Source: Eukaryota sp. GEM-RC1 (taxonomy: Eukaryota). Taken from it: a DNA stretch of 64,000 bases. Positions 7,451-43,757 of the stretch are shown here, piece by piece (position 1 is the stretch's first letter; each line of letters starts with the position of its first letter). The position numbers and the translations under genes are program-made. The notes beneath the pieces are model-generated. The model made no database searches. It had not been told where the DNA came from and saw nothing but the letters and a program-made list of their open reading frames with translations. Where the stretch lies: the NCBI GenBank assembly GCA_040285855.1, contig JAUFOQ010000010.1, positions 1,426,001 through 1,490,000 on the forward strand, read 5' to 3'.

Positions 7451-8387
7451 TAGGATTGTAATTTTGAGTCAAGCTGACTCACTGAGATTTGAGTCAGTCA
7501 GCTCGAGTCAGGCTTATTTGACTTATGAGTCGAGTCAAGCCTGTATCTTTGTTTGTGAGTCAGCTCGAGTCAGGCTTATTTGACTTATGAGTCGAGTCAA
7601 GCCTGTATCTTTGTTTGTGAGTCAGCTCCACTCAAGTTTACTCTAATGAATATAATTTAGTACAATTTAAACGTACTCTATTACAATCACGTGGACATGG
7701 AATTAGTAGCTGTTCTCTGTATAAATTAATTTGCTTGTTAATGTGCGGGATGAGATGAGAGCTTACTTATCAACAGGCATAGTCGATGCTGCGGTGGATC
7801 CCCTAGATTGGTCGAAACGCTCACTAACCCAATCTGTAATAGATTCTATCACTACATCATGACCATTCGAAAGAAGTAGAGTTTCAAAAGCATCAGTGGG
7901 TGTGAAGTTTTCGACAGTTTCTTTAGTATAGATTCCAATCAGATTATCATAGCTTAGTTCACGACTACTTCAGCATTCAGCCAAGTTCAGCAGCAATTGA
8001 ACGTTTGTTCTCTGCTGCAAACCAAATTGTAACAAAGAAAAGGGCTAGACTATCTGCAACACTGCAATGAGTTTATTGTGTCTAGTAGTGTAGACACTGT
8101 CTACACTCGTGGTACGGAATAGGTGTATTAAATTCAGATCAGTAGAAAACAGTACATGTACTACAAATGCTACATGTCATGTAGCATTTGTGTTATGTTA
8201 TAGTAAAATAGAAAAGAGCAGTCAAAACGAGTCAGCTCGAGTCAGGCTTGGTTGACTCATGAGTCAAGTCAAGTCAAAGGTAGTCAAAATAAGTTAGCTC
8301 GAGTCAGGTTTTGTTGACTCATGAGTCAAGTCAAGCTTCAAATTGTACGCTTGACTCGACTTGACTCGGCTCATTTTAACAACCCTA
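7451..8387 (+). mobile_element. Non-autonomous hAT element
   Basis: Termini TAGGATTGT / ACAACCCTA, perfect 8-bp TSD CTCACATC (7443-7450, 8388-8395), subterminal GAGTCA repeats. Internal hAT dimerisation remnant DYFSIQPSSAAIERLFSAANQIVTKKRARLS. Confidence 0.92.
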
Positions 8388-11039: not shown

Positions 11040-13634
11040 CTAAATGTTGCTCTGTTTTAAAAGAACAGAATTTCCTCGTAAATCACTCTCAGAAACAGAT
11101 GAGTTATGTAACAAGGCTTCACCTAAAGCAATTGCTCCGTTGTCAGTAATAAAATTAGACTCAAGAATAATCTTGGTAACTGAAGAATTGACTTTAAACG
11201 CATCAGCCAAAGCTACTGCTCCTTCATTATCAATAGAATTGCACCGTAAAGCAATCGTAGTTAGGGGAGGAATTCTGCTTTAACGCCTCACTCAAAGCCA
11301 ATGTACTCTTAACTCCCATAGAATTGCTACCAAAATTAATTGATGAAAGGGCTGATGATCCTATATTCAAGGCTTGTATGATCTGTGACAAGGCTACGTC
11401 AGACAGTCCACACTCACTGAAGTCAACAGAAGTCAAGGAAGTATTGGTCTTGATCAAATCACATAAGGAAGTGATTGTATCATTAGAAAATCGAAATCGG
11501 GTAAGTGTTAGTGCTTTCATTATGAAACACTGGAAAAAACACTTCAATGCTGAAACAGTAGTAGTATTCATTTGAATTATTTTATAAGGACGAAACAAAA
11601 GCACTCCTTTGTCGACGTCAACTTGATGTGGATGAAGGTCAGTAAAGATCACTGATTTGCTCACAGAAATGATCTGTAATAAACGAATAATGTCATCATT
11701 ACTGTCAAGACTTGATCCTCGACATTCTACACGTTTTATAGGGATCTTTGATTGTAAGGCAGTTAAAAGTGATGATACATCATTGCTTTGAATCATGTCA
11801 ATATAAGAAATTGATCGAGTAATTAGGTCAATTGAATATGGGGGAATTCTAACAGATATTAAGGAACTGCTGGTTGATAAAATTTCAAACAATGTAATAA
11901 GGTCTTGTAAACAACTACAACTACAATCACGACATTCTACACGTTTAATAGGAGTGTTTGATTGAGAAGCTCTAACAAGTAAAGAAGAAACAGTGGAAAT
12001 ACAATTGCGATCTTCATGACAAATAACTCCAAGAGAAACATCAATCGAATGAGGAGAAAGATTAATGTTTGTAGTTAATTTACCAGCTGAAACTAGTTCA
12101 AAAATGGTGAACATAACATTAAGTGTAATACTAGTAGAACAATTACTTAAGTTGATCTTTTTTAAATTTGTGTTGAACTGTAGAGCACTGAGTAAGTTCG
12201 AGAATTGATGATATAGTGAACAGGACGAATATTGGTTGTAAGTAATGAAATCGTCATCAGAAGAGCTTTGGTAATTGCTACACCAATAATCATCAAAGGA
12301 TCTTCACGATCAAGGTGATCGTAACAATGACAGATAACAGGAGATGATTCATTGTCAGTCAAGTAATCATAACAATTACAGAGAACACTTTCAAAATCGT
12401 AATTAGGTATATACAGTCTGGTAGTTTCAATGTAACTGAAGTCAACAGAAGTCAAAGTATCATTGTTCTTAATTAACTCACACAAAAGAATGAATGCATC
12501 ATGGGCAAACCCACAGTCTTTAAGTGTAAGGTCTTTGATACATACAGAGTCCAAAAAGGACTGTAGAAACGTCACGTCTTTAGCTTCAATCTGACTGCAC
12601 GATTGTGGATCACCAGCGAATGACAGCACACCATTTTTAAAATCAAAGATATGAGGATCAAAATCAATAGAGCATGTTATATTGCTATTACATACAGTTT
12701 CACAGTCACGTACGAAAGAACGCAAACGTTTACGACTAGAGGGCAAAATGACTTTCCGGAGTGTTGAACTCTTTTCCAGAGCTTCAACTAATTTTTTAAA
12801 TTGTGATGGCCTAATCTCGAATCCATCCAATTTTAGAATCACTAATGATGTATTATTCCGCAAAATGTTCCCTAACGCCTCGATTTCTTCGTCGTTATAA
12901 GATTGATTACCAACGAGATGTAGTTCTGCTAAAAACCTGTTGGACTCAAGAGATTTAAAAATTGATGAAGACGATAATGGGGATAAACTTCTACTGAAAA
13001 CGTCACAATTGCGAAACGAATAATTGTACGGTAGAATTGAAATTTTAATAATATTGTTGTTTAATAGCGGAACCACTGTATTATGATCACGAAGACGCAC
13101 ATCTGATAAATCAACTTCTTGAATGGAGTTACAGTTAGCAAGTGCATTTATCATTTGAATCCACGATTGATCTTCGAAGGAGGAATCTGATCCAGCAATG
13201 GAAACCTTCCTTAAATGACATTTACTTGAGGAAAAAATTTCAGTGATTAGATTCACTTGTTTGTTTGAACATGCATAAACATTGAGATCGTGCAAAGTTG
13301 GGCTTTCAAGTACATATCTGGCAGTGACCTCGTTAAAGTTTGGATTGGTACCACTGTAACTGTAACTCATAGGTCTAATAGAGAGTGTTCGAAGATCGGG
13401 TAAGAAAAGAGGATCAGAAGGATTGAAGAAGTTATGAGAATATAGGCATTCACTGTCAAGACTAATTGCACGGATAATTGGGGTGAATGGAACAAGATCA
13501 GAACAATTGAACCGGTTAATGACATTTAACTCAATGGAATATAAACGAGTATTGAAAAAAGAAGCAATGTCGGAAAGTTTGAGAACGTTGTCTGGGTAAA
13601 CTTTGAATGTTTTGCTCTCAAAATAGGTTTGAAT
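11040..13634 (-). pseudogene. 3' part of an RI-like LRR gene interrupted by the retrotransposon
   Basis: LRR motifs (LTSVDFSECGLSD, INFGSNSMGVKSTLALSEALKQNSS, VTKIILESNFITDNGAIALGEAL). The frame stays open upstream of 13370 up to the TSD. Homopolymer frameshifts near 12297 and 11265; 3' end approximate. Confidence 0.85.
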
Positions 13635-13700
13635 TGTTGTCTGTAGACATGGAAGAAGGTAAAGTAAATTTATTTTAAGGGTACTGTACCAGTACTAACA
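13635..13700 (-). repeat. 3' LTR (66 bp)
   Basis: TGTTAGTACTGG...CAGACAACA on the minus strand; contains AATAAA; flanked by TSD GAAT at 13631-13634. Confidence 0.95.
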
Positions 13701-13719
13701 CTACTTTTTCCCCTTTCTC
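13701..13719 (-). other. Polypurine tract overlapping the end of the integrase ORF
   Basis: GAGAAAGGGGAAAAAGTAG immediately 5' of the 3' LTR; encodes RKGKK-stop. Confidence 0.85.
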
Positions 13720-16700
13720 GAGGACCTGGTCCTCTTGGCAGGTGGAGAGGCACGACTGGTACTACCCTGAACACTTCGTTTCTTTCTAGTAGACGGTTTA
13801 TATGAGGGATTAGATTTAATAAACTCAGAATAGGCTTTCGTATTCTTTATTTGATCTAAAGGTACCTCGGTGGTGTCGCCATCGAACCAGACGACTGAAC
13901 AAACAGGTCCGGAGGGTGAGTCGGATTGGGACAGTACCTTAATCACGATCATTTCCTCAGAGTCACAGGATGCTACTGCTTTGTGGAACTCATCAGACGA
14001 GGGTTTGTCAGTGAGGTATTTCTTACATTGGTGAACACTAGATTTGAACTGATGTCCAGTGATAATGTTCTGTAAGGTAAGAGAGCTGGCAGTGGGAGTG
14101 TCGATGACCAGGAATGGACCTTCGAGCTTGCCGTGAAGCTTCTTAGTTTTGGAGTTAGTCTTGAGGACTAAGTCTCCACTCGAGTACAGGGACGACGAGG
14201 TTGGTTCGGCAGTTATCACGGGTTGGGTGGAAGATTGGTTGATCTCTGCCTCTTCCCGGTTTTTCAAAATTCTTTGAATTTTTGATTGATAATCTGCCAG
14301 GAAGAAATCTTCTGATTGGCTTTCCCGCGAGAGACAAGCTAGGATCTTGCTAGGGTCGCTACCAGGGCTGGTGGCTGATCCGAACATGAGTTGGTATGGG
14401 GTGAAACCTGTCACTCTGCTCTTAGTTGTGTTAACTAACAGTTGTACAATTGGAATGTACTTGGACCAGTTGTCGTAATCATTAAAATCGATAAGCATCT
14501 TTCTTAATGACTGCAGGGTGTCTCTGTGGCGACGTTCCACTAATCCGTTGCTTTGCGAAAAACTGGGGATGGATTTCTCCGTATCAATATCAAAAGCCTG
14601 ACACACGCCATTAAAGACATGGTTGGCAAACTCCTTACCATTATCGCTATGAATCAGATGGGGTATACCAAAGATGGCACATACATTACACACTAGTGCA
14701 TGAGCGGTTTCTTGGGCATTGAGCTCCTTCAGGGGACATAAGACTGTATAACGGGTAAACGAGTCTATGAAAACGAGAAGGTGACAGTTCCCGGAGGTAT
14801 CTGTCGGCAAAGGTCCGATGGTGTCGGCATTCATTTTGGCAAATGGTTTGTCAGCCCAAAGGTTACCTGATGGTTTGATTTTGAGTTTTGCAAGGGGGAG
14901 CTGTCTTTTGACAAGCTGGACATTGCATGCAGTGTTTCTTCATATCTTTGGCCATCTTAGGCCAGAAATAGTCACTAGAGTTTAGCCGATCAATGCTGAC
15001 TCTTAGGCTGGGGTGGCCTGCGTGAGGAAAACCGTGGATGTGGTTCATCGTGGTGTTCCGAAGACTCATAGGTATGAGTATCTTACCATCGCTATTTAGG
15101 AATAGCTGGAGCTCGTCGTTGTATACAGCAGTGGGATGCTGGAACAGTACGTCGTTGTTGTTCTTGGCTTCTACTTGTGTGGAGCGTATCTTCGATAGCC
15201 AAGCGTCAAAAATTTTTGACTTGTTGATTAATGGTTCACTAATTGATGGTTCACTAATCATGTTGATTGACTCGGAGGTCAGTGATTGATATTCCATGTC
15301 GTCATCAGTACGACATAGTCCATCGATTCTAGAGAGCATCGGCTCGGGGCAAGATGTGACTAGGTTTATGTTTTCGGGTTGAGAGGTTTCAATGTTTCGA
15401 GATAACATGTCTGCCCAGTAGTTGTCTGCTCCAACAGTGTGGATCACTGAGAATTGGAATTCGCTTAGGATAGGTATCCAACGCTTGACTACTCTGTTTT
15501 TCTCAGGTGCTGAGATGAGGAAAGCTAGGTTTCTATGATCTGTGAAGATGGTTAAATCCCTACTTAGGAGAAATGATGACATGGGGGATTCCGTTAGGAT
15601 CAGGACAATAGCGTACAACTCTTTCTGAATTGTTGCCCAGTTTTGTTGAGATTCCGTTAGGAGTTTGCTGTAGAAAGCTAGTGGAATAACTTTCCTGTTG
15701 TTCAATGGGGTTCCATCTTGTGCGTTAGGAGGTATTTCCTGCCAAATGACACCACCTACGGCGATATCACTGGCGTCTGCACTAATCAGCACGCGTTGGT
15801 CCCTGTCTGGTAGACTGAGAGGCATGTGATTGATGATCTTATTTCTGATTGTCTCAAAATTAGATTGATGGAGAGGTGTCCATTTTACTGAACGAGCGTT
15901 GTTCTTGACTAAGTTTATGATTGGAGCCAGAAGGTCTGACGCACCTGGAATAAAAGTCTTTTATGTAGTTAATCGAACCCACGAAGCTACGAACTTCTTT
16001 GATTGTGGTTGGTATGGGCAACTCTAGGAGAGCTGTGATACGCGATGGGTCAATACTGCGTGTATTGTTAACGAACTTACTGCCCAAGATCTTTAGTGGG
16101 TGTTTCTTTGTCACAACGTGGCATTTTGGTAGGCCAAGGTTGACTCTACGTGTTAATGCTTTAGTCAGAACGAATCGGATTCGGCTCATGAATTCTTCGA
16201 ATGTACGGCCTACTATGATGATGTCATCGATGTAGATGAATATGCCCTCATGGTCGAATATTTCATACATCAAATTTTGAAATATCGCAGGGACGTTCTT
16301 GAGTCCAAAACAAGCTCTTTTAAATCGGATGGCTTTGCCAGGGATTACTAGAGTTGTCTTGTCTCTGTCCTTTTCTGCGAGGTTCAATTGCCAGAAGGCT
16401 TTCGGAAGATCTAAGGTCGCTATGAAGTTAGCTTCACTCAGAAATTCCAAGATGTCGATGATCTTTGGAAGATTCGGTTCGACAACTCGGGTCAATGCGT
16501 TGATTCCATCGGAACCACTGAAGTCTCCCGTAAGGCGGGGCTTACGTTGATCGGGATAGACCACCAGTACTACCGGTGAACTGAACTGTCCGTTGGGAGT
16601 TGTTAACTCAGCAAAGTCCTGTCGGACGAGTTCATCAAAAATCTCTTCGGCAATCCGTTGTTTCATTGGATTGAGCCGTCGAGGTTTCCGTCTCACAGTG

Positions 16701-19700
16701 GACTCTTCATTGTAGAAGTCGATCGCCATGGGAGGACAATCGATGCCGTCTTTGTGAGGAGCTGTTGAAAATATTGAGGAAAACTCCTGAAGCAGGCTCA
16801 ATAGGCTCTTAGTTCTGTTATCATCATCTAGTTTGATTGTGCAACCTGAATCGAATACATGTTTATTAAAGTCTACAATGTTATCAATAGAATGGCTACG
16901 GGGAGGTTGTATGATACGTGAGTCGAACTCAGACTCATCGTTCACGGTGGCCAGGATGGCCTTGTCAATCCGGATGACTAGTCCGTCTTCGGTCAGTAGT
17001 CCTAACTGTTTCATCAGATCGATTCCCAATAATAGTTTGTTGGATCCGGGTATTATTGGTAACGTCTTATCCACGTGTGTCAGGTACGCGATACTACTGG
17101 TATCGAAGGTCAAGATGCCCTGGGCGCTACCCAAGGACCGGGACTCGACATTGTTAGCGGAGGTGAAGCGAACATTTTTGTTGACAGGCGTCATGTTACC
17201 AGGTCTTGTGTGATGACGGACATGGTTGCTCCACTGTCCCAAAAACCTTGAACCGGAATTCCGTTAATCATCAGTTTGCAGCTGAGAAGAGGGAGTGGGT
17301 TCTGACTACTTATGCTGAATATGGAATTCAGGCTTTGTGAGTTCGTATTACCATTGGCGGAACTGATGTTGCTCAATGGGTTTAAGAATTGATTGGATTC
17401 AATCAAAATGGGATTTGATTGATTAGATGTGATGTTGTCAGATATATCTACAAGGCTGTTAATATGTACTGAATTTGCATTGAAATATTTAGATTTTTTA
17501 TTAGACGAGTGTTTCTTGCTATGACTACGAGATGGTTTTAAGGCGGTACTCTTTGCATTGCGTTGTTCTAAAGGAAGTTCACTACGTTTACATTCGGGAT
17601 CCGGGCATTGGAGGATGGAATGGCCCTTTTCGCCACAAAATCTACAGGCGTCAGGGTCTTTCTCTGCAGATCGAGGCTTCTTCGAGGGTGGCTTGGAGCT
17701 GGATGCCGATCTACGAGATCTACCGGGTTCACTAGACTGAACCGGGATGAGGGGACGAGAAGTCCATGATTTGGGGAGGTCTTCCCAAGTAGCTGTATCT
17801 CTAAGATGAGCTATCTCGGCAATTCGTTGTTCGTTCTGCACGTTGGCTGGAGCAGATTTCCATCTCTCGCACCAAGTGTCATAACGTTCTTTGACTTCGA
17901 AGATTAATCCTTGGATATCCGGAGAATCTTGGTAGAGAGGCCAACATTCAATCCAGATGGATACGATGCCTAAGTTTGACAGAATAGCTTTAACAATGGC
18001 TTTGTCTGGTAACGCAGTCATTGGCTTATTCTTCGGCTTTATGGCCTGGGTTCTTTGTAGAACGCGGTGCAACCGTGATATGAAATCACTCCATCGCTCT
18101 TCAGGGTCTGTGATGGACCACTTCATCTTGATCTTGTTCAGCTCATTCAAGGCAGTGGTCTCGTCTGGGAACTGAGTACGCTTGAGGAGAGCTAACCATA
18201 GGGTGAGAGGGTTCTTACCATCCCACTCCTTTGCATAGACAGCTGGGTCTGTAAGTCGAACTTCACAAAGCGTTGGATGTAAGAAGGATCAGCGTGTGCT
18301 GCAGCCGTTCGACAGAAGTCGAAAAAATGTCTTGGCCATCCGAATGGAGCCCCTACCGGTGTTTTGTGGTTAGGGTCCATCACGCTCCATTGAAGAAAGT
18401 CTTGAGCAAATTCAATGATGTCGTGTGGTTTCAAACTCGAAAGCATCTTTGGTTGAAGCTTGGAGTTCTTCATAGAGTCGAGGGGGACTTTCTGTTGGAA
18501 AGTGACAACACTATGGGACATTGGGGAACGTTGTTCCACAACCGAATTGGAAGCTGACGGAGCCAGGGGGGGGAAGGAGGTCAGTTGAAGGGGAGGTTGA
18601 TGTCGTGCTAAGATCACTCAAGGAGAGACCAAGCTGGTGGACATCAGATGGTGGATTTGATTGATCGGAAGGTGATTGATAAAATTCGGAAATTTCTTTC
18701 ACTTTAGACTTCGGATTTGCATTTGCTCTACGAGCGAGTTCTTCTTCATATTCCACTCGAGCTCGGTATTTCAATGCTGTGGGTTGGATAACCACTTCAT
18801 CAGTCGTGGTTATGGTGCTCTGGATAGCTTCGGGGAGCGGAGAGGAGTTGTGATCTGATGGGCGAATTCTTTTGTCCAAATTCGACTTTTCAAAAGTTCG
18901 ACCTGTCAATACTTCCTGGACCTTTTCCCAGCAATCTTTCACGGGAATCATGGTTTCCGGTATACTAGGGTCCATCAGGATAGTATGGGGTTTTCCTCGG
19001 TCGTCAAGGATGGTGTAAGTTCCTTCAAGGGGGAGAACTTCGTCGTTAAATTGTCTCCTGATCAGTCTTATGGCTGCCTGAGCTGGTCTAGGATAGCGGT
19101 TTCTTAGGTAGTCCGTTCTATCTTTGGCTCCATGAAGAAAATCATGTACCATTTGGCGATCTGATGGGAACATACGATGTTCTACTCGTTTTAGTTCCTC
19201 TTCTGTTAACCCTTGTTGAAAAGGTCCAGGAGGGGCCTGGAATAACTCTGAGGAACCCGTCTTAGTGGACCTGACAGGATAAAACCCTTGGACGGGAATA
19301 ATGGGATGGGGTTGGAACCCTCTCGTATCTGTGACAGGCCTTGACGGCGGAGGTTGAGACGGGTTAGATGGGCCTTTAGCGGGCGTCTGACCAGACTCTT
19401 CATCATCAGATTCGTCGTATTCGCATAGATCTTCTAAGTCAGGGTCCGCGGTGGGAGTGACGTGAGATACTATGGGTGTTTCACCAACATGAGGAACGGT
19501 GTCCTGGGCACGTGGAGTCGACGAGGCATCAACTATGGGAAGTGATGAGGGAACGGTACCCTTCTGAGATTTTTTTAATAGGGGCACTTTTGGAAGTGGC
19601 TTTAGGCAAAGGCTTGGATGGATGGAGACCTAGGTCTCGTTCCGAGGCAAACTTGAACCCCTCTAGTTGCGACGTGGGAGTTGCAAAAGAGGAGAATTGG

Positions 19701-20245
19701 AGAGTAGGAAAAGGCTTGTTCGGAGTTGGAGCTCCGCTGAACATAGCTCTAATCCTCTCGAAGGAAGGATTCGGTGGAGACGAAGTGTCTTTCGGAGGGA
19801 CCATATCTCTCGGAGGAGATAAATCCTGGTAATTAATCTGGACAGTGGAATCTTCCAGGGAGGAGGGGCTCTGAAGAGTGGTACCTTCTGGAGGGCTATC
19901 CTCTTGAATGGTGATTACTTCCTCTTGGGGTTGGGAAGGAAGGGTGGAACCTTCAACCACAGGAATCCTTTGAAGGGCGGGACCTTCTGAGGGAGTTTGC
20001 TGGGTTTGAGGAGTAGGGACGGAACCTGCAACCTCGGAAGTTGCTGGAAGGGCGGAACCTTCAACAGAAGAGGGACTTTGAAGGGCGGAACCTTCTAAAA
20101 GGGATGTAGTTGTTCCTTGGAGGGCGGGACCATCCGAGAAGAAACGACTCATTGTGGGGTCCTGGGACCTTGGTGAGTGCGGGGGCACTCTTTCACAAGG
20201 CGCAGCACCACATGGGACACAATAATTATTGTTGTCTGTAGACAT
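13701..20245 (-). CDS. Gag-Pol polyprotein, probably one ORF split by six single-base indels
   Basis: Zn knuckle CRFCGEKGHSILQC; protease WDSGA; RT LDLPKAFWQL, FGLKNVP, YIDDII; RNase H DASD, KELYAI, TDHRNL, ADMLSR; integrase HHCC (HGFPHAGH..CPAC), DTIGP, SDNGKEF, SNGLVER, GPF motif. Confidence 0.9.
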
Positions 20246-20295
20246 GGGAGAAGGTAAAGTAAATTTATTTTAAGGGTACTGTACCAGTACTAACA
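20230..20295 (-). repeat. 5' LTR (66 bp), containing the polyprotein ATG (20245)
   Basis: Same as the 3' LTR except 20248 G versus 13653 A; flanked by TSD GAAT at 20296-20299. Confidence 0.95.
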
Positions 20296-20593
20296 GAATT
20301 GAGACAAACGCGCATTCAAAGAAGAACTTGTTGACGTAACCGATTCTATGAATGAATTTGACCAATTCATCGAAGACAGTGGAAGGACGAATAGTATCTG
20401 ATCCCAATCAACCATGAGTAAGTAAGTGGACATTGAAAGACAATAATAGAGGTCCTTGTATGAAGATGGTAGAAGAAAGATGAGATGAATCTGATTGAAG
20501 AGAAGATATTGGTGTTGAAACAGCATTTAGATGAGTAGCATAAGTGATTTCAGAGTAGCGATTCTTCTTGAGTGGAGGTTCACTGTGAGACAT
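20296..20593 (-). pseudogene. 5' part of the interrupted LRR gene
   Basis: MSHSEPPLKK...LLTHG*LGSDTIRPSTVFDELVKFIHRIGYVNKFFFECAFVSI joins in frame to QTYFESK beyond 13634. It aligns with the paralog motif SFFKKVGYVSHHFFES. One in-frame TGA at 20408-20410. Confidence 0.85.
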
Positions 20594-23162
20594 TGTTTGG
20601 AGAATTTGTTTATGTGAAACTACAGTAGAACAAAAAGTGAGAAAATTCTACATTGTAGACAGATGAAAGGTATCAGGTCACACTACATTGTAGCTGGTCA
20701 GGTCAAAGTCTTGACCCCATCTTGACCTGACCTTTGATCCGATGGAAGGTATCTTGATCTGACCTGTTGCTTGATGTCTTGATCAACTACATTGAGTGTA
20801 TAATCTGTTGTGTTTCATAGCTGAATTAGTTGATATGATGTTGTTTCATATAATTGAACTCAAACAAGGTCCAACAATTACTTTATAAATCCACTTCAAA
20901 ACCAGAGTCTAACCACGCATTCAGACATACAAGAGCTTCGTTTTCGTTTTTGTATATTATTATTAATCGTCTACACTGACAGCTTATTACACAATAATAG
21001 TTTTGTACTACTTTATGTGTGATTTTGAATTAAAGAACATAATCAATGAACATCGAAGACTAGAAGGCAGATATCTTGACCTGACCCAAGTTCTGATGAT
21101 CTTATCTTAACTTTTTAACAGCCTTACAAAAGACATATAATCACGACCATAGGGTTACTGAAAATGAAATTTTGCATTCGATTATGGAAGAAGAATTGGG
21201 ATTGGTATAACCCTACAGCAATTGGTTTAATTAGTGTGGATTACACTAATTTTCATTACTTTTTCAGCTCGTAGAAATTATTATTGAAAAGTGAGAAAAT
21301 TGCTTGGTATCTATTATTGCCATTAATTAAAGGTTTTTAAAAATTTGTTACACATAACCATGGCTATGAAAACTCTATTGCTTTTCCAATATTGCAATCA
21401 TCAATATTTATAACCGTAATCTACATCATTTTCTGGTTCTTCCTTTCGGTTTGTTGGGACACTTCTTCTTCTTGTGACCTTCAATAATACATCCTCCACA
21501 TGGTGGATTGAACACCAAGATTGGGTGTAAGTGGTAGAACAATAGACTTTGTCAATAGTTTTAGATTATGTACATCTGGTAGTCCTTTCACTCTCCTTGT
21601 TTCACCAGTGCAATAAATCTAAACGCTCTTTGTTAGTTGTAACAAATCGGAAGGAATGACATAGTGTAAATTAAGGTATTTTGTTGATCACTTGTTTGAA
21701 CATGGAATGAACAAAACGATCTTTCAGAATCTTACACAACAAGAGATTCCAATTCTATGGATAGAAAGATGAAAACTAAACTCTTTTGCAGCAGAGCAAA
21801 TTTCCATTGGGACAATAATTCATCACAGTTAAGGAACTTTCTTAAAGCTGAAGAGGAACATCCTCAATGTCAGACATGAATAGTACAAAGAAAGGCAATT
21901 TTGCGGTACAAAGATAGCCACATCCCCATTTTCGGTAGTTTTGGTGAAATGAAATTTCAGTTTTCATCTACTAGTAGTGTTTCATAGCCTTTATTTTGAT
22001 ATGTATTGTGGTCCCCTTCATCTGTAAAGTTTGTTCTTAATTGATTTTTTTTTCATACATGGGCATGACATCATGACGCCATTGTGTTTTTTTTGTGAAG
22101 TTTTATGACACATCATCTAATGCTAATTAATGTGCGACTACACCTGAAACAAATGAATCTTTTGTCGCCCGTCATTTTCCAAACAAACTCTCATCCTCAA
22201 TACAGTTCCATTCTGACATTATCTGATATTCCTGGTTTATATGCAAAATCTTTAGTTTAAGTGACATATAAAATGTTGATGATGTAATTGTATCACAACA
22301 AACGAACCAAAAACTCGTGCTGGTGCAAAAGATTATTCCATGAAGTCCTTATCGGTATAAGAAGTGAAAAAATTGTGGAAATGAAGAAGAAAAAGAATAT
22401 TCATTCATGTAGACTATTGTTGAATAACTATCAATAAATATTGGAAATAGTGTTGTTTGTCATACTGACACGTCATGACATGGAGTGTCATGACAGAATT
22501 CAATTTGTTGTCAGGTATGATTTTTTTGATGAAATTCAGACACATATTGTGAAGAAATACTGAAATTGATTTAGAAATAATGTAACTTTTAGAAAGTTAA
22601 AAAGTAAAATTAGAAACCGAAATGAATGAATGTTTTTGACCATAGACATGGGCTTTGTCAGACAGGAAGAAAGTGAAGACGATTAATATTTTGAAGAATC
22701 CTAGTACTAGGTATTTAGGGTATTCAGGTAGGTATTGGTTATTGTTATTCATAAAATCAGGTATCCACAACTATGATTGCTATCAATCAACATAGCGAAA
22801 TCAGCATACTGGTATCAATACACTGACTCAAATAGCAATAATTTGAGTTATTAAACATAGTTATATATATAGACCTATAAGCCGGCTGGCCAGAGGTGGA
22901 TGGCTGGGATGAGATTAAAAAGTGGACCGACTGCCAACCCTACTTGTATTGGGGTCCTTTAAATCTCTCTTTGTATAATTAAAGAATATTCCATCTTTTT
23001 GTTCAAAGCTAAGAGTATAGCATAACTATATGTTGTAACTAAAGAAGAAATGACCTCATAACAATGGATAAATGTTAATTCAATGTTTCAATTTGGTATT
23101 GGTTAACCAGTGATATTGGGTTTTGTTTCAATGAGAGAGTATAACTTACTGATTAAGTTTAT

Positions 23163-24677
23163 CTAATAATAGTGTATTTGGACAATGGTATTGCATTTCA
23201 ACGTCTTTGCCAAAGCACTGCGACCGTTTGTCCCAATAAAGTCGATCTTTAGATCAATATTTGTAACTGTAGTGTTAACTTTTAACGCATCTGCCAATGC
23301 TCTAATACCTTCATTTCCAATCCAATTGCTGTCTAGATTAATACTTGTAATTGTGGTATTAACTTTTAACACATCTGCCAAAGCTCTGGCGCCTTCATCT
23401 CCAATAGAGTTGTGGCCCAGATTAACACTTAATAATGTAGTATTAACTTTTAACGCCTTTGACAATGCTCTAATACCATCATTTCCAATACAATTGTGAT
23501 TCAGATCAATACTTGTAACTGTAGTGTTAACTTTTAACGCATCTGCCAAAGCTCTAGCACCTGTATTTACAATAGAGTTGTGTCCCAGATTAACACTTGT
23601 TACTGTAGTATTAACTTTTAACGTCTTTGACAATGCTCTAATACCTTCATTTCCAATACAATTGCTGTCTAGATTAATACTTGTAATTGTGGTATTAACT
23701 TTCAATAGTTCTATAAATGTCATAGAGATAGAACTATGAACATACACGTGAAGCTTCTTAAGACGTGGAAACATCAACGAAGACTTGTTAAGAAACTCCA
23801 AGTCATTGCAATTTGATAATTTCAATTCCAAACCTGAAATTATATTAGAATAATTGAGAAATTCTTCAACTTTAAAGGTCGCGGAATCGTGCAAGAAAAC
23901 AGACTGTATCTTTGCTCCAAAGAAAGAAGCAAATGAACAGAGTTGAGGAAGGAGATTAAAACAAATATGAAACGTGTTTGTACTAAGAAACACATTGGTT
24001 GCTAGTAGAGCTGATTCAAAGAAATGATGGCTTACATAGCCAACTTTCTTGAAGAATGAATGAAGTTCGTTCTTTAAACAAAGGAATCCATGACGAGGTT
24101 CCTCACGATCCCATTCAAGGGAAGACTCACAAAGACTTCTCAACAAGTGAACACTGATGAGAATCAACAAAGACTGTTGGAAGTGTAGGGATCTTAAAGG
24201 AGACTGTAATGAATATGTCAAAGGGAGAAGTTCAAGTGGTTTAGGTTCAGCATTAGGTTTAGAAGAGAAGGTACTAGTATTCAATGGTTTAACAGAAGAC
24301 CGAGGAGTAGAGGCTACATAGGTACGGATAGGGCGGCCATGGATCTTAAACATCCAGTACTTATCTAAACATTGCTTGAGTCCTTGAACATCAAGAAATT
24401 CGACAAAGAACGTACCCGGCATATTACTAGGAGATCGAACTTCTTTAACGGGAAGAGAGGAGAAAGCTTGCCGAATGTCAGCTTCTGTTGCACTGTATGC
24501 AACGTTCACGATTTTGGCAGTGAAGGGGGCTTCAGAGGGAAGTTCATATTCTTGGTGGGATGGACGTAGAGTGAAAATGAGTGGTTCTTCACAAGCTATT
24601 GGATTACAAGAAGATCGAGTAGGTTCACTGTGGAAGGAGGATGTTTCATCAGTTCTTGTTTGAGTATTATGCTTCAT
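23163..24677 (-). CDS. RRM (eIF4B/eIF4H-like) fused to an RI/NLRC3-like LRR protein
   Basis: Intact ORF. RRM PSEAPFTAKIVNVAYSATEADIRQAF...FFVEFLD...IHGRPIRTYVA, family linker FFKKVGYVSHHFFE, then about six 28-aa repeats KVNTTVTSINLxxNxIGNEGxRALxxAL. Confidence 0.88.
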   Translation of the reverse strand: MKHNTQTRTDETSSFHSEPTRSSCNPIACEEPLIFTLRPSHQEYELPSEAPFTAKIVNVAYSATEADIRQAFSSLPVKEVRSPSNMPGTFFVEFLDVQGLKQCLDKYWMFKIHGRPIRTYVASTPRSSVKPLNTSTFSSKPNAEPKPLELLPLTYSLQSPLRSLHFQQSLLILISVHLLRSLCESSLEWDREEPRHGFLCLKNELHSFFKKVGYVSHHFFESALLATNVFLSTNTFHICFNLLPQLCSFASFFGAKIQSVFLHDSATFKVEEFLNYSNIISGLELKLSNCNDLEFLNKSSLMFPRLKKLHVYVHSSISMTFIELLKVNTTITSINLDSNCIGNEGIRALSKTLKVNTTVTSVNLGHNSIVNTGARALADALKVNTTVTSIDLNHNCIGNDGIRALSKALKVNTTLLSVNLGHNSIGDEGARALADVLKVNTTITSINLDSNWIGNEGIRALADALKVNTTVTNIDLKIDFIGTNGRSALAKTLKCNTIVQIHYY

Positions 24678-39885: not shown

Positions 39886-41310
39886 GGGGGGTGTTGCCTT
39901 CCCTAAGAACATGCGGTGGCCCTTCACGAGGCTTTCCCCGGCTCTATGATGTACCACTTGTTCAATACATTTATTTTTTGACTGAATGGTTCTTGAAAGA
40001 AGTTTATGCATTTATGCATATTTGCATAAATTTGGTTTCCAGAAAGTTGGAAGACGCAAATTATCAAAATAACAGGTATAAAAGAAATTCTGAGTAGATG
40101 AAATTCCTTCATCCACCGAAAAGAACTACAATTTGAAAATAGAGGCGAAAAATTGAAAGAAGCAAAACAGTTCTCAATTTGAAGCCGTGGAAGGAAATAT
40201 TCATTTAAGACTCTGCGTGTCAAGTTCTCAATTTTTCCCACAACTTCCATTGTTCAACACTGACGGTTCATTATCAATTAGTTTGAGCAATTACTTTACT
40301 TTGAGCTGATGTTAATTAGAATGTGATTGACTGTGTACTCAATGTTGACTTGGTGTGGATGACTTCAATAAATATATGATGTAATTTTGTCTACTAAATT
40401 CTGCTATTGTTGCGTCCGTAAGGCCACCTAGCGCAAACAGACGATTATATGGAAACAAACACATTGTTAAGATTGATGCCCAACTTTCTTCCTCTTATAG
40501 GTCAAAATCGAGGCCACTGTGTACCAACACTATGAACTATATGGAAGCAAACAGAGGTGTTCAGCGATGTTCTTTCCTTATATCAACTTGCTGTTGTTGA
40601 AGAGAAATGCTTAGACCCGAACTTATCCATATATGCATATATGGATAAATTGCTCCACTCATTCATTTTTGCATACAATTGGGTAATACTTTAAATTTGA
40701 TAATGTTGACAATTTGTTTAAGGATAACTTAATGAAGGTTTTAATGAAATAACGAACAAAATTGTATCTAAAGGTGAAAACTAAAATCGGAAAAAGAAAA
40801 GAATGAATTAAAGATGTTTACCAAACTGTTCTGAACGTCTGACAATCTAGGAAATCAAAGCAATTCGATAGTTGAGATAGTTTCGCTGGTTGTTGCCAGA
40901 CGCTAATCAATAGTCAAATATTACTTCTTCACACGGATTCCTTACAAGAAAGATGTAAGTGTTTAAATAGTACAACTACAACTTAGAAATTGATGAAACA
41001 ACTCTCACCACAGTCTTTGGACAAAAACGAAAAGAAAAACACAAGAATCATTGGTAAAATTAATAATTTTCACTGTGTAAAAAGGTGCAGTACTTATCGA
41101 TATTTAGAAACATAGTTCAGATCTGAATATGCACATAAGATACTGTATATACAGATTTTGTGTATTTACAGTGATTCTTATTTTGAAATTAAAATAAAGA
41201 AAACATAATGAAGTGTCTTGCTGTGATTCCAGATACAGCCCAAGAATAAATTAGAAACATTGGAATCATCATATTAGAAAAATCATTGAATTCTAGTACA
41301 ATTTGATATA

Positions 41311-43757
41311 CTACAACAACCCTCTTCTTTTCAAAATATCAGTAGGATCACAACCTTTTAATTCTACTTTCTTCTTCTCCCAATAACTTAGTAAATCTGG
41401 ATCCAGTACAGCACATTCCTCGTAGAAAGTGATTAAACTATCAATTCCGGAAGTATTGTTTAAGTTTGCAGATTGTATAAACAATTCAAGTGCCTTTTGC
41501 CGGTTCCTTGGTACCATAAGACCGGAACGATACTTTTCACCTAAGTTTCTTATGGCATAAGAGCAACCCCCATCAGCTGCCAATTTAAAATATTTAATTG
41601 CATCATTTAAATTCTGTTCCAAAGCAGTACCAGTCCTTAACAATCCTGCCATAGTATTCATAGCTTCAGGATCGCCCTCAGAAACAGCAACTTCCAGGTA
41701 ACCAAGTCCTTCTTGTACATTCTTTTCAACTCCTAATCCCTCAAAGTAACAGCGATGTAATCCATAAAATCCTTGAGGATTTCCTAATTCTGCCGCCTTT
41801 TTGAACCACTGAAGAGCTTCACTTTTATTTTTGTCAACTCCTTTACCAGAGAAAAAGCACCAGCCAACATTAACCACTCCAAAAACATTTTTCAATTCAG
41901 CAGACGTTTTAAAACATTCAAAGGCTTTGAAGAGATTCTTTTCAACACCAAAACCGGAGTAATAACAACCGCCTAATTTGAAAATGCAATCAACATGATT
42001 GTGATTAGCACCTTCATTAAACAAGGTAAAAGCCTTTTCATAATTCTGAGGCACACAATTTCCATAAACAAACTGCAATCCATCTGAATACAGTTGATTA
42101 CCAGCTTTTTCACGTGATGACAACAAATCCAGAGAAGTCTTTGCAATGAAAGTTGTGATAGCTGGTCCAAGTTTACTATCGTTGTTGATTTCCATCAGAG
42201 AATTTAAAAATCTAACCACATTCAAATCTGTTTTGTCCATAATTAATGACACACATTTTGAAAATGAGTCATTTGTCCAAGAAAAATTGAATTGCTCGGA
42301 ATTTTTCCAAGACTTCACGAGGCATTTTCCAAGCCATACACCGAAATCACCAGGAAGTATTGAACAAAGAAGTTCAAGATAGTTCTTTGGTAAACATAAA
42401 TTAGGATAATTTTCTAAAGACTCTAATGTAACAATAGAAAGAAAACAGTGACCAAATAGATTTAAATCAGTAAAATAATTGGAATTATTTTGTAAGGTCC
42501 ATAGAAACCAATCTGGAGGAACATTTGTAAAACTTTTAACGTTTTCAAAAACATCAATTGACCACTCCAACAACGTAGATATTAAGTGATCATCACCAAT
42601 GGAATCTATCAGTTCGAAAATCTTGATAAACTCATCTCGAAACTCCTCAGGAAATTTTAAAAGTTCATTGGTTTTTGGATCTAAAGAATATTCATTTTTG
42701 TATAGCTCAATTAAACATTTAAACAACCAAAAAGGATCAACAACAGGCAACAAGGAAGTAATAAAAGAAACTCTTAGGGGGTAAGATGGACTGTCAATAT
42801 TTGAAAAAATTAAAAAAATCTGGGTATTTTGATCAATGAAATAGAATTGATTTTTGTCGTTACAAGTTTTCAAAAGATGAAAAAGTTCTTCTTGTGAGAA
42901 AGAATTCGAAACCAGAAAGTCTTGACAAGCCAATTTCAACTGATCTACTTGGAAATAAACAGATAACTGAAAAAACTCCAAAATATTTGAAATACTGAAT
43001 TCAACAGAATTCTCATAGTGAATAAGTCCGAAAAACAAACCAAAAACATCTTCAGATACACCTGGAAATTCATCAGAATATTCAAAATTTCTAACAGCTG
43101 AATCTTTAAATTCACATGTAATTAAATTCTGAAACATTTTCGAAAATGAAATCAATAAGACAGAGTTTAATGTAATAGACGTGTTTTTGTAAGAAACACG
43201 TACGTCTTTAGGGCAAGATTCTACCATTTTTAAAATTAACTTTTTGAATCCAATTTAAAATTGTTATCCTCAAAATTAACCAACCCTTTTGTCATTCTCT
43301 CAGTAACAAACTGACTTAACTCCTGGAACTGAAGAAGAGAAGCAATGACGGAGATAGATGTAAGATTTTCAGGAGTAACAGTAAGAGATTGGCCATAGAG
43401 AGTTGACAGGACTGAGAAGAAGACATCAGAATCTGTAAGAAAAGGAAGTAGAGGGAACTCTATTGTGGTAGATTCCAGACCATTCACCTTAAGAACAGGA
43501 CTGAAAGCACTGACGACGAAGGAATGACAGGGGAAAGAGTTACCATCGTAGGTAATGACAGTATCAGTAAGAAGGTTGTCTCTTTGTAGAGAATAGAGGT
43601 TGTTGCAGAAACAATCCGAAGGGAAGCGATAAGTATTTGGAAGAGAAAGACTATCAAGAACTCGAGGGCGTTTAGAAGGAGGACTTTTGACGTCAGTGGT
43701 GTTGGAAGTTCTAGAAGAGAGTCGAGAGTTACTTGAATTGGACATGAGATTGGGCAT
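41311..43757 (-). CDS. BTB-BTB-helical-SEL1 repeat protein, copy 1
   Basis: BTB motifs (LTDTVITYDGNSFPCHSFVVSAFSPVL; DVRVSY...LISFSKMFQNL...YFQVDQLKLAC) and about six SEL1 repeats (LGGCYYSGFGVEKNLFKAFECFKTSAE). ORFs join with one extra A at ~43243. Confidence 0.88.

Follow-up and report, generated by a model that had tools for sequence, protein, structure and literature searches.

The 64-kb stretch of the Eukaryota sp. GEM-RC1 genome analysed here (the window, by which the whole stretch is meant) carries on its minus strand a Ty3/gypsy-type long terminal repeat (LTR) retrotransposon of 6661 bp. A perfect 14-bp palindrome lies across the junction between its 5' LTR and the internal region, and no site for the 3' end of a tRNA adjoins the LTR. 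On the basis of the sequence, we tentatively suggest that the palindrome serves as a self-complementary primer-binding site (PBS), used in trans between two element RNAs and without a tRNA; this is regarded as a possible reading rather than a probable one. The evidence consists of the position and composition of the palindrome, its conservation in 16 gene models of the same strain and its predicted pairing energies.

The LTR junction and its conservation

Behind the terminal CA of the 5' LTR, the sense strand reads ATAATTATTGTGTCCC, or ATAATTATTGTGTCCCATGTGGTGC when followed over a longer distance. The palindrome, ACAATAATTATTGT, combines LTR nt 64-66 with internal nt +1 to +11 and is centred between +4 and +5. 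Both the palindrome and its imperfect extension had been noticed in the original prediction and were recovered when the sequence was read again, as were two inverted repeats within the LTR (GTACTG-GTA-CAGTAC at 20276-20290 and TGTCT-AC-AGACA at 20233-20244). Perfect palindromes whose arms measure 7 nt or more are about three times commoner in the window than expected, with 17 occurrences against 5.46 +/- 2.33 in 200 first-order Markov simulations. Simple arithmetic from these window counts, made for the single DNA copy, gives odds of about 0.1-0.4% that one of them falls on a given junction. A coincidence of palindrome and junction by chance is unlikely, and the conservation at the protein level described below adds weight to this view.

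A TGG-headed PBS within a few nt of the LTR is usual, though not obligatory, in Ty3/gypsy elements, and is missing here: no TGG is found at +1 to +19 behind the 5' LTR in this copy. The earlier statement that no TGG follows the LTR holds for the 16 nt then considered; the first TGG, at +20, lies outside them. Neither a tRNA nor a member of any other Rfam family was detected in the 64-kb window.

Sixteen gene models of the strain begin at an ATG inside the LTR, with the protein starts MSTDNNNYCVPCG... or MSTDNNNYCVPCGAAPC..., and one of them (P0098) apparently represents the locus studied here. Since these models start within the LTR, the junction of other copies can be read as protein. The comparison comprises 16 gene models with 10 distinct strings of 33 aa and is confined to the protein level, at which third codon positions are invisible. 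In the window copy, the codons over the palindrome are GAC AAC AAT AAT TAT TGT, so that the palindrome encodes (N)NNYC of the gag N-terminus. The motif D-N-N-N-Y-C is identical in 14 of the 16 models. Its D, its first two N residues and the C after Y are unchanged throughout (16/16 each), as is the C after P (16/16), while the third N and the Y are each kept in 15 models (T in P0109 and C in P0094, respectively). Among the residues that follow, V is found in 15/16 models (F in P0089), P in 14/16 (T in two), G in 13/16 (S in two, A in one) and A in 13/16 (S in three). At the level of RNA, the exchange of Y for C (TAY to TGY) leaves a U.G wobble in place of one U-A pair of the palindrome, and the exchange of N for T (AAY to ACY) affects its central pair. 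The V-to-F exchange of P0089 lies in the 21-nt extension, which is thus not strictly kept. In P0101 the LTR interior differs (MSSRYL instead of MST), with DNNNYCVPC unchanged.

Codon logic applied to DNN(N/T)(Y/C)C(V/F)(P/T)C shows that a TGG ahead of the Cys-Gly boundary can be encoded by none of the 16 gene models. The proposed comparison with other copies, among which a normal TGG-headed PBS might have appeared, thus yielded no adjoining TGG at the protein level, and the predicted lack of a tRNA 3'-end primer site beside the LTR holds for this copy and, via the proteins, for all 16 models. More distant gag N-termini, taken from protein representatives and compared as protein sequences only, contained no similar motif.

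Two of the models, P0112 (2151 aa) and P0109 (2153 aa), each consist of one uninterrupted gag-pol open reading frame (ORF) that extends from the LTR ATG to ...SRKGKK, with the stop codon just ahead of the 3' LTR, and both contain protease (PR), reverse transcriptase (RT), RNase H and integrase (IN). In this extremely compact family, coding sequence covers both the PBS position and the polypurine tract (PPT). Judged by sequence, the family is apparently recent and has intact members. Given these intact members and the identity of the two LTRs of the window copy at 65 of 66 bases, priming in this family should work, or have worked recently.

Computed energies describe how the junction RNA might pair. 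The hairpin fold of a 46-nt junction segment reaches -8.3 kcal/mol (z = -0.77), and 45 of 200 shuffled sequences fold as well. For a 21-nt junction slice, placed one base off 20216-20236, the hairpin is predicted at -1.6 kcal/mol and the homodimer at -15.2 kcal/mol; the dimer of the 46-mer is predicted at -28.6 kcal/mol versus 2 x -8.3 kcal/mol for two monomers. A preference for the intermolecular duplex is the property by which dimerisation palindromes in RNA leaders are recognised, and these computed energies display it. On these energies, the site is suited to pairing between two RNAs rather than to forming a hairpin. The hairpin picture drawn originally is energetically weak, and an intermolecular duplex fits better. 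Two intramolecular arrangements were rejected: a stable hairpin as the main feature, on account of the fold energies, and fold-back priming within one RNA, for which about 2 bp would be left once the cut sits where the LTR boundary demands.

Priming in trans and competing explanations

The AACA ends, the PPT and the target-site duplication (TSD) fix the LTR boundaries, and the 3' end of any primer must therefore anneal within a few nt past position 20230, on the right arm of the palindrome. In the proposed mechanism, two co-packaged element RNAs would pair via the palindrome, and the element's RNase H would cut one of them in the right arm after palindrome position p, with p = 7-11 (between the centre and position 11), an event that would parallel the Tf1 cut in an RNA-RNA duplex. 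The 5' fragment thereby freed, with the end ...ACAAUAA(UUAU), would have its last p bases still paired with +1 to +11 of the partner (AUAAUUAUUGU) and could prime copying of the partner's unique 5' and repeat regions (U5-R). Extension would start at palindrome position 14-p, i.e. 0-4 nt past the terminal CA of the LTR, and IN would then trim these 0-4 nt, which would yield the boundary that the 3' LTR shows. A comparable gap of 3 nt, the stop codon TAG, separates the PPT from the 3' LTR. With p = 11, the primer:PBS duplex would measure 11 bp and start directly behind the LTR. Plus-strand strong-stop DNA would copy the primer and so regain the 11-nt PBS (+1 to +11); such regeneration of the PBS would account for a perfect complementarity of exactly 14 nt.

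Several points weigh against this mechanism. The DNA comparison comprises a single copy, in which compensatory changes in the arms are not visible, and the change at the central pair is carried by an intact copy, P0109. Conservation of the junction could be explained by protein coding or by an attachment (att) function, because the junction lies inside an ORF and overlaps the integrase-binding end of the LTR; the whole leader of 33 codons is fairly conserved, not the palindrome alone. The junction duplex is short and A/U-rich: paired arm against arm, it reaches only -2.2 kcal/mol for 7-nt arms and -4.4 kcal/mol for arms of 11 and 10 nt, in slices that are one base off register. Should translation truly start at the LTR ATG, the RNA would not have the left arm as its 5' end, and one of the genome RNAs would then have to be severed by a cut in its interior, unlike in Tf1.

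Priming by a host RNA is a rather unlikely alternative. The primer would be a 3'-truncated tRNA, e.g. a 5' half ending in the anticodon loop such as that of tRNA-Ile(AAU), or another small host RNA; the PBS would comprise the right arm onward (TTATTGTGTCCC from +5 or ATAATTATTGTG from +1), and the LTR end would match it incidentally or as a mimic of the primer. Such primers have precedents, since priming from the anticodon loop is established or predicted for copia, Ty5 and the plant elements Osser and Bianca (half tRNA-Ile; PMC6317226), and half-tRNA primers derived from tRNA-Tyr, -Ile, -Asp and -iMet are described for fungal Copia and Helenus elements (PMC10886601). The PBS of these systems, like the site described here, lacks TGG and has an A/T-rich start beside the LTR. 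It is not palindromic with the LTR end, and within the scope of the two surveys truncated-tRNA priming is known only from the Copia superfamily, in the plant survey from lineages of that superfamily only (PMC6317226, PMC10886601), whereas the element described here has the gypsy order. On this reading, the perfect palindrome reaching into the LTR would be left unexplained. Read by eye, the reverse complement of +5 to +16 gives a 5-nt stem followed by ..AAUAA, which loosely resembles the Ile anticodon loop. As an anticodon loop this complement would need A32-C33, at positions where a pyrimidine (32) and U33 are near-universal, and the run of nine consecutive A/T bases is unlike the stems of cytosolic tRNAs.

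The strong predicted preference for the homodimer over the hairpin would equally suit a signal for dimerisation or packaging of the genomic RNA, and the position at the U5 end a recognition site for IN or RT; in either case the primer would come from another source. We consider this unlikely. Self-complementary leader sequences that lie near the PBS and favour dimers are known from Ty1, whose palindromes PAL1 and PAL2 serve RNA dimerisation (PMC8396678), and from retroviruses with palindromes at the dimerisation initiation site (DIS) or the PBS; palindromes overlapping the PBS occur in mouse mammary tumour virus (MMTV) and are discussed for HIV-2 (PMC8096270). The termini of LTRs are moreover integrase sites, with the general consensus TGTTRNR...YNYAACA (PMC3601003), to which the TGTT...AACA ends of this element conform. 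The Ty1 and retroviral systems differ in that they possess a separate tRNA PBS, while here the PBS position itself is taken up by the palindrome; as no other place is open to an annealing primer, a role confined to dimerisation would deprive the element of every candidate PBS. For dimerisation of MMTV, the palindromes at the PBS are dispensable (PMC8096270). Dimerisation and priming in trans are, besides, not mutually exclusive.

It is very improbable that the palindrome is a product of chance or decay, i.e. a by-product of Asn-Asn-Asn-Tyr-Cys codons in an AT-rich stretch, and that a tRNA 3' end primes at +20 on TGGTGCTGCGCC. The abundance of palindromes in the window, the coding nature of the site in all gene models and the 12-nt string headed by TGG at +20 speak for this explanation; the low odds of a palindrome at the exact junction and the same arrangement in the fungal GalEa elements (PMC5445492) speak against it. 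A PBS at +20 would add 19 nt to U5 and so to the 3' LTR, where they are not present, and the Gly codon that provides the GG of this TGG is changed in 3 of the 16 models (to Ser twice and to Ala once). The TGG at +20 was rejected as a PBS.

Anatomy, relatives and surroundings of the element

The coordinates of the element are compiled in Table 1. The LTR pair was defined by BLAST of 20101-21500 against the window: the sole repeat common to this segment and the rest of the window is 20228-20295 = 13633-13700 (68 nt, 1 mismatch). The LTR sequence is TGTTAGTACTGGTACAGTACCCTTAAAATAAATTTACTTTACCTTCTCCCATGTCTACAGACAACA. Between the LTRs, Pfam domains occur in the order RVT_1, RT_RNaseH, Integrase_H2C2 and rve, with IN behind RT-RNaseH, and the element has the Ty3/gypsy order. 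A CCHC knuckle is seen in the gag translation, and the aspartyl protease was found in the full-length relative P0112. The TSD can also be read in longer forms because the flank repeats the LTR end.

Table 1. Features of the LTR retrotransposon and of its 5' LTR junction (positions in the window; +1 is the first internal nt behind the 5' LTR)
Feature	Position	Strand	Basis or remark
Whole element, domain order gag(CCHC)-PR-RT-RNaseH-IN	13635..20295	-	Pfam and LTR pair
5' LTR, 66 bp, TGTT...AACA	20230..20295 (sense 20295->20230)	-	repeat of 13635-13700
3' LTR, 66 bp	13635..13700 (sense 13700->13635)	-	begins right behind the pol stop codon TAG
ATG inside 5' LTR (LTR nt 51-53), in frame with gag	20243..20245	-	start of 16 NCBI gene models
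gag-pol coding region, at least 6 frame segments in this copy	13701..20245	-	
Perfect 14-bp palindrome ACAATAATTATTGT, proposed self-complementary PBS	20219..20232	.	sequence
Imperfect 21-nt extension GACAACAATAATTATTGTGTC, one bulged A	20216..20236	-	sequence
First TGG behind the LTR (+20 to +22), heading TGGTGCTGCGCC; poor tRNA-PBS candidate	20208..20210	-	sequence
Polypurine tract AGAAAGGGGAAAAAG	13704..13718	-	in the final pol codons; 3 nt (stop TAG) ahead of 3' LTR
AT-rich box TTAAAATAAATTTA, AATAAA at 20264-20269	20260..20273	-	sequence only; inside LTR
Target-site duplication ATTC, 5' copy	20296..20299	-	alternative readings AATTC or CAATTC
Target-site duplication ATTC, 3' copy	13631..13634	-	flanking sequence

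Although the two LTRs are nearly identical, gag-pol of this copy is broken into at least six frame segments when compared with the intact models, as a result either of decay or of indels left uncorrected in the Nanopore-based assembly; the GEM-RC genome was assembled from Nanopore reads and polished with Illumina data (PMC11316075). The NCBI model P0098 spans one of the frame breaks like an intron. No further copy of the element and no related RT or IN was found elsewhere in the 64-kb window.

At only 66 bp, the LTRs are nevertheless complete: they have TGTT..AACA ends, their AT-rich box includes AATAAA, and a start codon begins at nt 51. The unique 3' region (U3), R and U5 must share 66 nt. 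The AT-rich box is a candidate core promoter and/or poly(A) signal. LTR finders are usually run with minimum-length settings that exceed 66 bp; an LTR can be as short as this, and families of such a size may escape annotation. Within the leader, a G+C-rich hairpin (GAGTGC-CCCC-GCACTC, about 20172-20190, minus strand) lies about 20 nt ahead of a second in-frame ATG (20150-20152). The residues VPPH that it encodes are replaced by AQ(L/P)PH in two gene models, hence it is not strictly kept. In P0119, a model of the same strain from outside the window, the integrase C-terminus is joined directly to gag-like EGSALQ repeats, which could reflect tandem elements with a common LTR or a mis-joined model.

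The best relatives of the RT region are proteins listed at NCBI under "Eukaryota sp. GEM-RC1", with up to 97% identity, followed by those of two other "Eukaryota sp." strains with about 40-68% over most of the query; all others reach at most 35%. The strain is Skoliomonas sp. GEM-RC, a metamonad from soda-lake sediment (PMC11316075). In the main text of the genome paper, the word "retrotransposon" occurs 0 times (PMC11316075). A scan of metagenomes with the RT protein returned 104 pattern matches and no relative, and a degenerate junction pattern gave 0 matches there; scans of viral contigs likewise revealed no relative and 0 matches.

When the element and one ATTC are removed, the reading frame is open across the empty site over 526 aa (37 upstream and 489 downstream; 11230-13634 and 20296-20410, minus strand). 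The next ORF downstream of the empty site has a weak LRR_6 match, and the element may have inserted in or just ahead of a leucine-rich-repeat gene. At 23188-23775, five head-to-tail 84-bp units, corresponding to leucine-rich repeats of 28 aa, are part of a 504-aa ORF that has LRR_6 repeats and an RNA recognition motif (RRM) domain. The region 41300-62700 is composed of repeated units about 5.9-6.9 kb apart and 66-95% alike, one of its ORFs (638 aa, 41311-43227, minus strand) coding for BTB and Sel1 repeats; this suggests a tandem gene family. Other palindromes of the window include a perfect one of 26 bp, TTATCCATATATGCATATATGGATAA, at 40623-40648, and two identical ones of 16 bp, TTGACTCATGAGTCAA, at 8252-8267 and 8314-8329, which are 62 bp apart.

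Relation to known priming systems

With Tf1 and its sushi-group relatives (Tf2, Tj1, Tcn1; PMC7175516, PMC4600332), the element shares the Ty3/gypsy order, the lack of a tRNA 3'-end site and a PBS position straight behind the LTR that is complementary to the element's own RNA, with an 11-nt primer:PBS duplex being possible. In Tf1, the transcript's first 11 bases anneal to the PBS, and RNase H cleaves the RNA between bases 11 and 12 (PMC7175516); this primer is remote from the PBS, with a U5 structure between them. Here the two arms are contiguous, so a structured U5 separating primer and PBS is absent. Along the 6661-nt sense strand, the left half of the palindrome, an 11-mer at element nt 64-74, is the only stretch of 8 nt or more that is complementary to the first 40 post-LTR nt. 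As this sole complement abuts the PBS, the intramolecular version of Tf1 priming would be impossible and an internal cut required. The best duplex between LTR and post-LTR sequence amounts to -9.7 kcal/mol, a value equalled by 25-41% of shuffles. A remote self-primer of the Tf1 type was rejected on these findings. The suspected difference from Tf1 is accordingly borne out by the missing remote complement, while the imperfect match to the LTR segment AAAATAAATTT, remarked upon at the same time, is not meaningful in view of the shuffles. A further difference from the Tf1/sushi group is that no chromodomain was found by Pfam (no Chromo match at E<=1), the only hit being a sub-threshold one to Tudor_3 (E 0.039). 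Judging by the title of a report by Haag et al. from 2000, priming in trans is said to occur in Tf1.

The closest precedent for the palindromic site is the Conserved Hairpin Site of the GalEa elements, copia elements of fungi described in 2017 as having no PBS (PMC5445492). Their 9-bp motif, CTGATCAGT or CTAATTAGT, forms a palindrome once the final A of the 5' LTR is included (A|motif), and a complementary sequence, CHSeq2, is located 12-41 nt downstream of the first motif (PMC5445492). According to the authors, no described priming model fits (PMC5445492). Both systems have a palindrome that is placed at the PBS position and takes in the last base or bases of the 5' LTR, no PBS of the tRNA type, an AT-rich TAATTA-like core, a single large ORF and, according to our reading of the printed motifs, a palindrome centre 4 nt past the LTR end. 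In GalEa, which is known from Pezizomycotina, a 10-nt palindrome with 1 LTR nt is combined with the copia order and LTRs of 138-311 bp; in the metamonad element, which has the gypsy order (IN after RT), the palindrome is 14 nt long, the LTRs measure 66 bp and the site lies within the gag ORF. No second copy resembling CHSeq2 exists, as the palindrome arm is the only complement of 8 nt or more in the whole element. A mark of the GalEa-type site is conservation of the palindrome across families that exceeds that of the LTRs; for the present family this trait can be followed at the protein level only, where DNNNYC recurs in most models and P0101 keeps it next to a different LTR interior. In the open-access literature on palindromes, PBSs, dimerisation and self-priming, no such site was found described for gypsy elements or for metamonads.

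The start of reverse transcription in LTR retrotransposons is considered settled, being attributed to a tRNA 3' end, a tRNA half or self-priming of the Tf1 type. Palindromic primer sites could represent a general, previously undescribed route to this step, found in gypsy elements of deep-branching metamonads and in fungal GalEa copia elements, although we hold this broader generalisation to be doubtful. If it were true, each of two co-packaged RNAs could prime the other and no host tRNA would be needed, and the puzzle of the GalEa hairpin site, which has stood since 2017, would be explained. With a further example, from an unrelated superfamily and a very distant host, the palindrome looks less like an oddity and more like a mechanism, and here the site is reduced to a bare 14-nt palindrome without a downstream partner sequence. 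With its compact organisation, its intact ORFs and its apparently recent activity, the family would be well suited to testing the mechanism.

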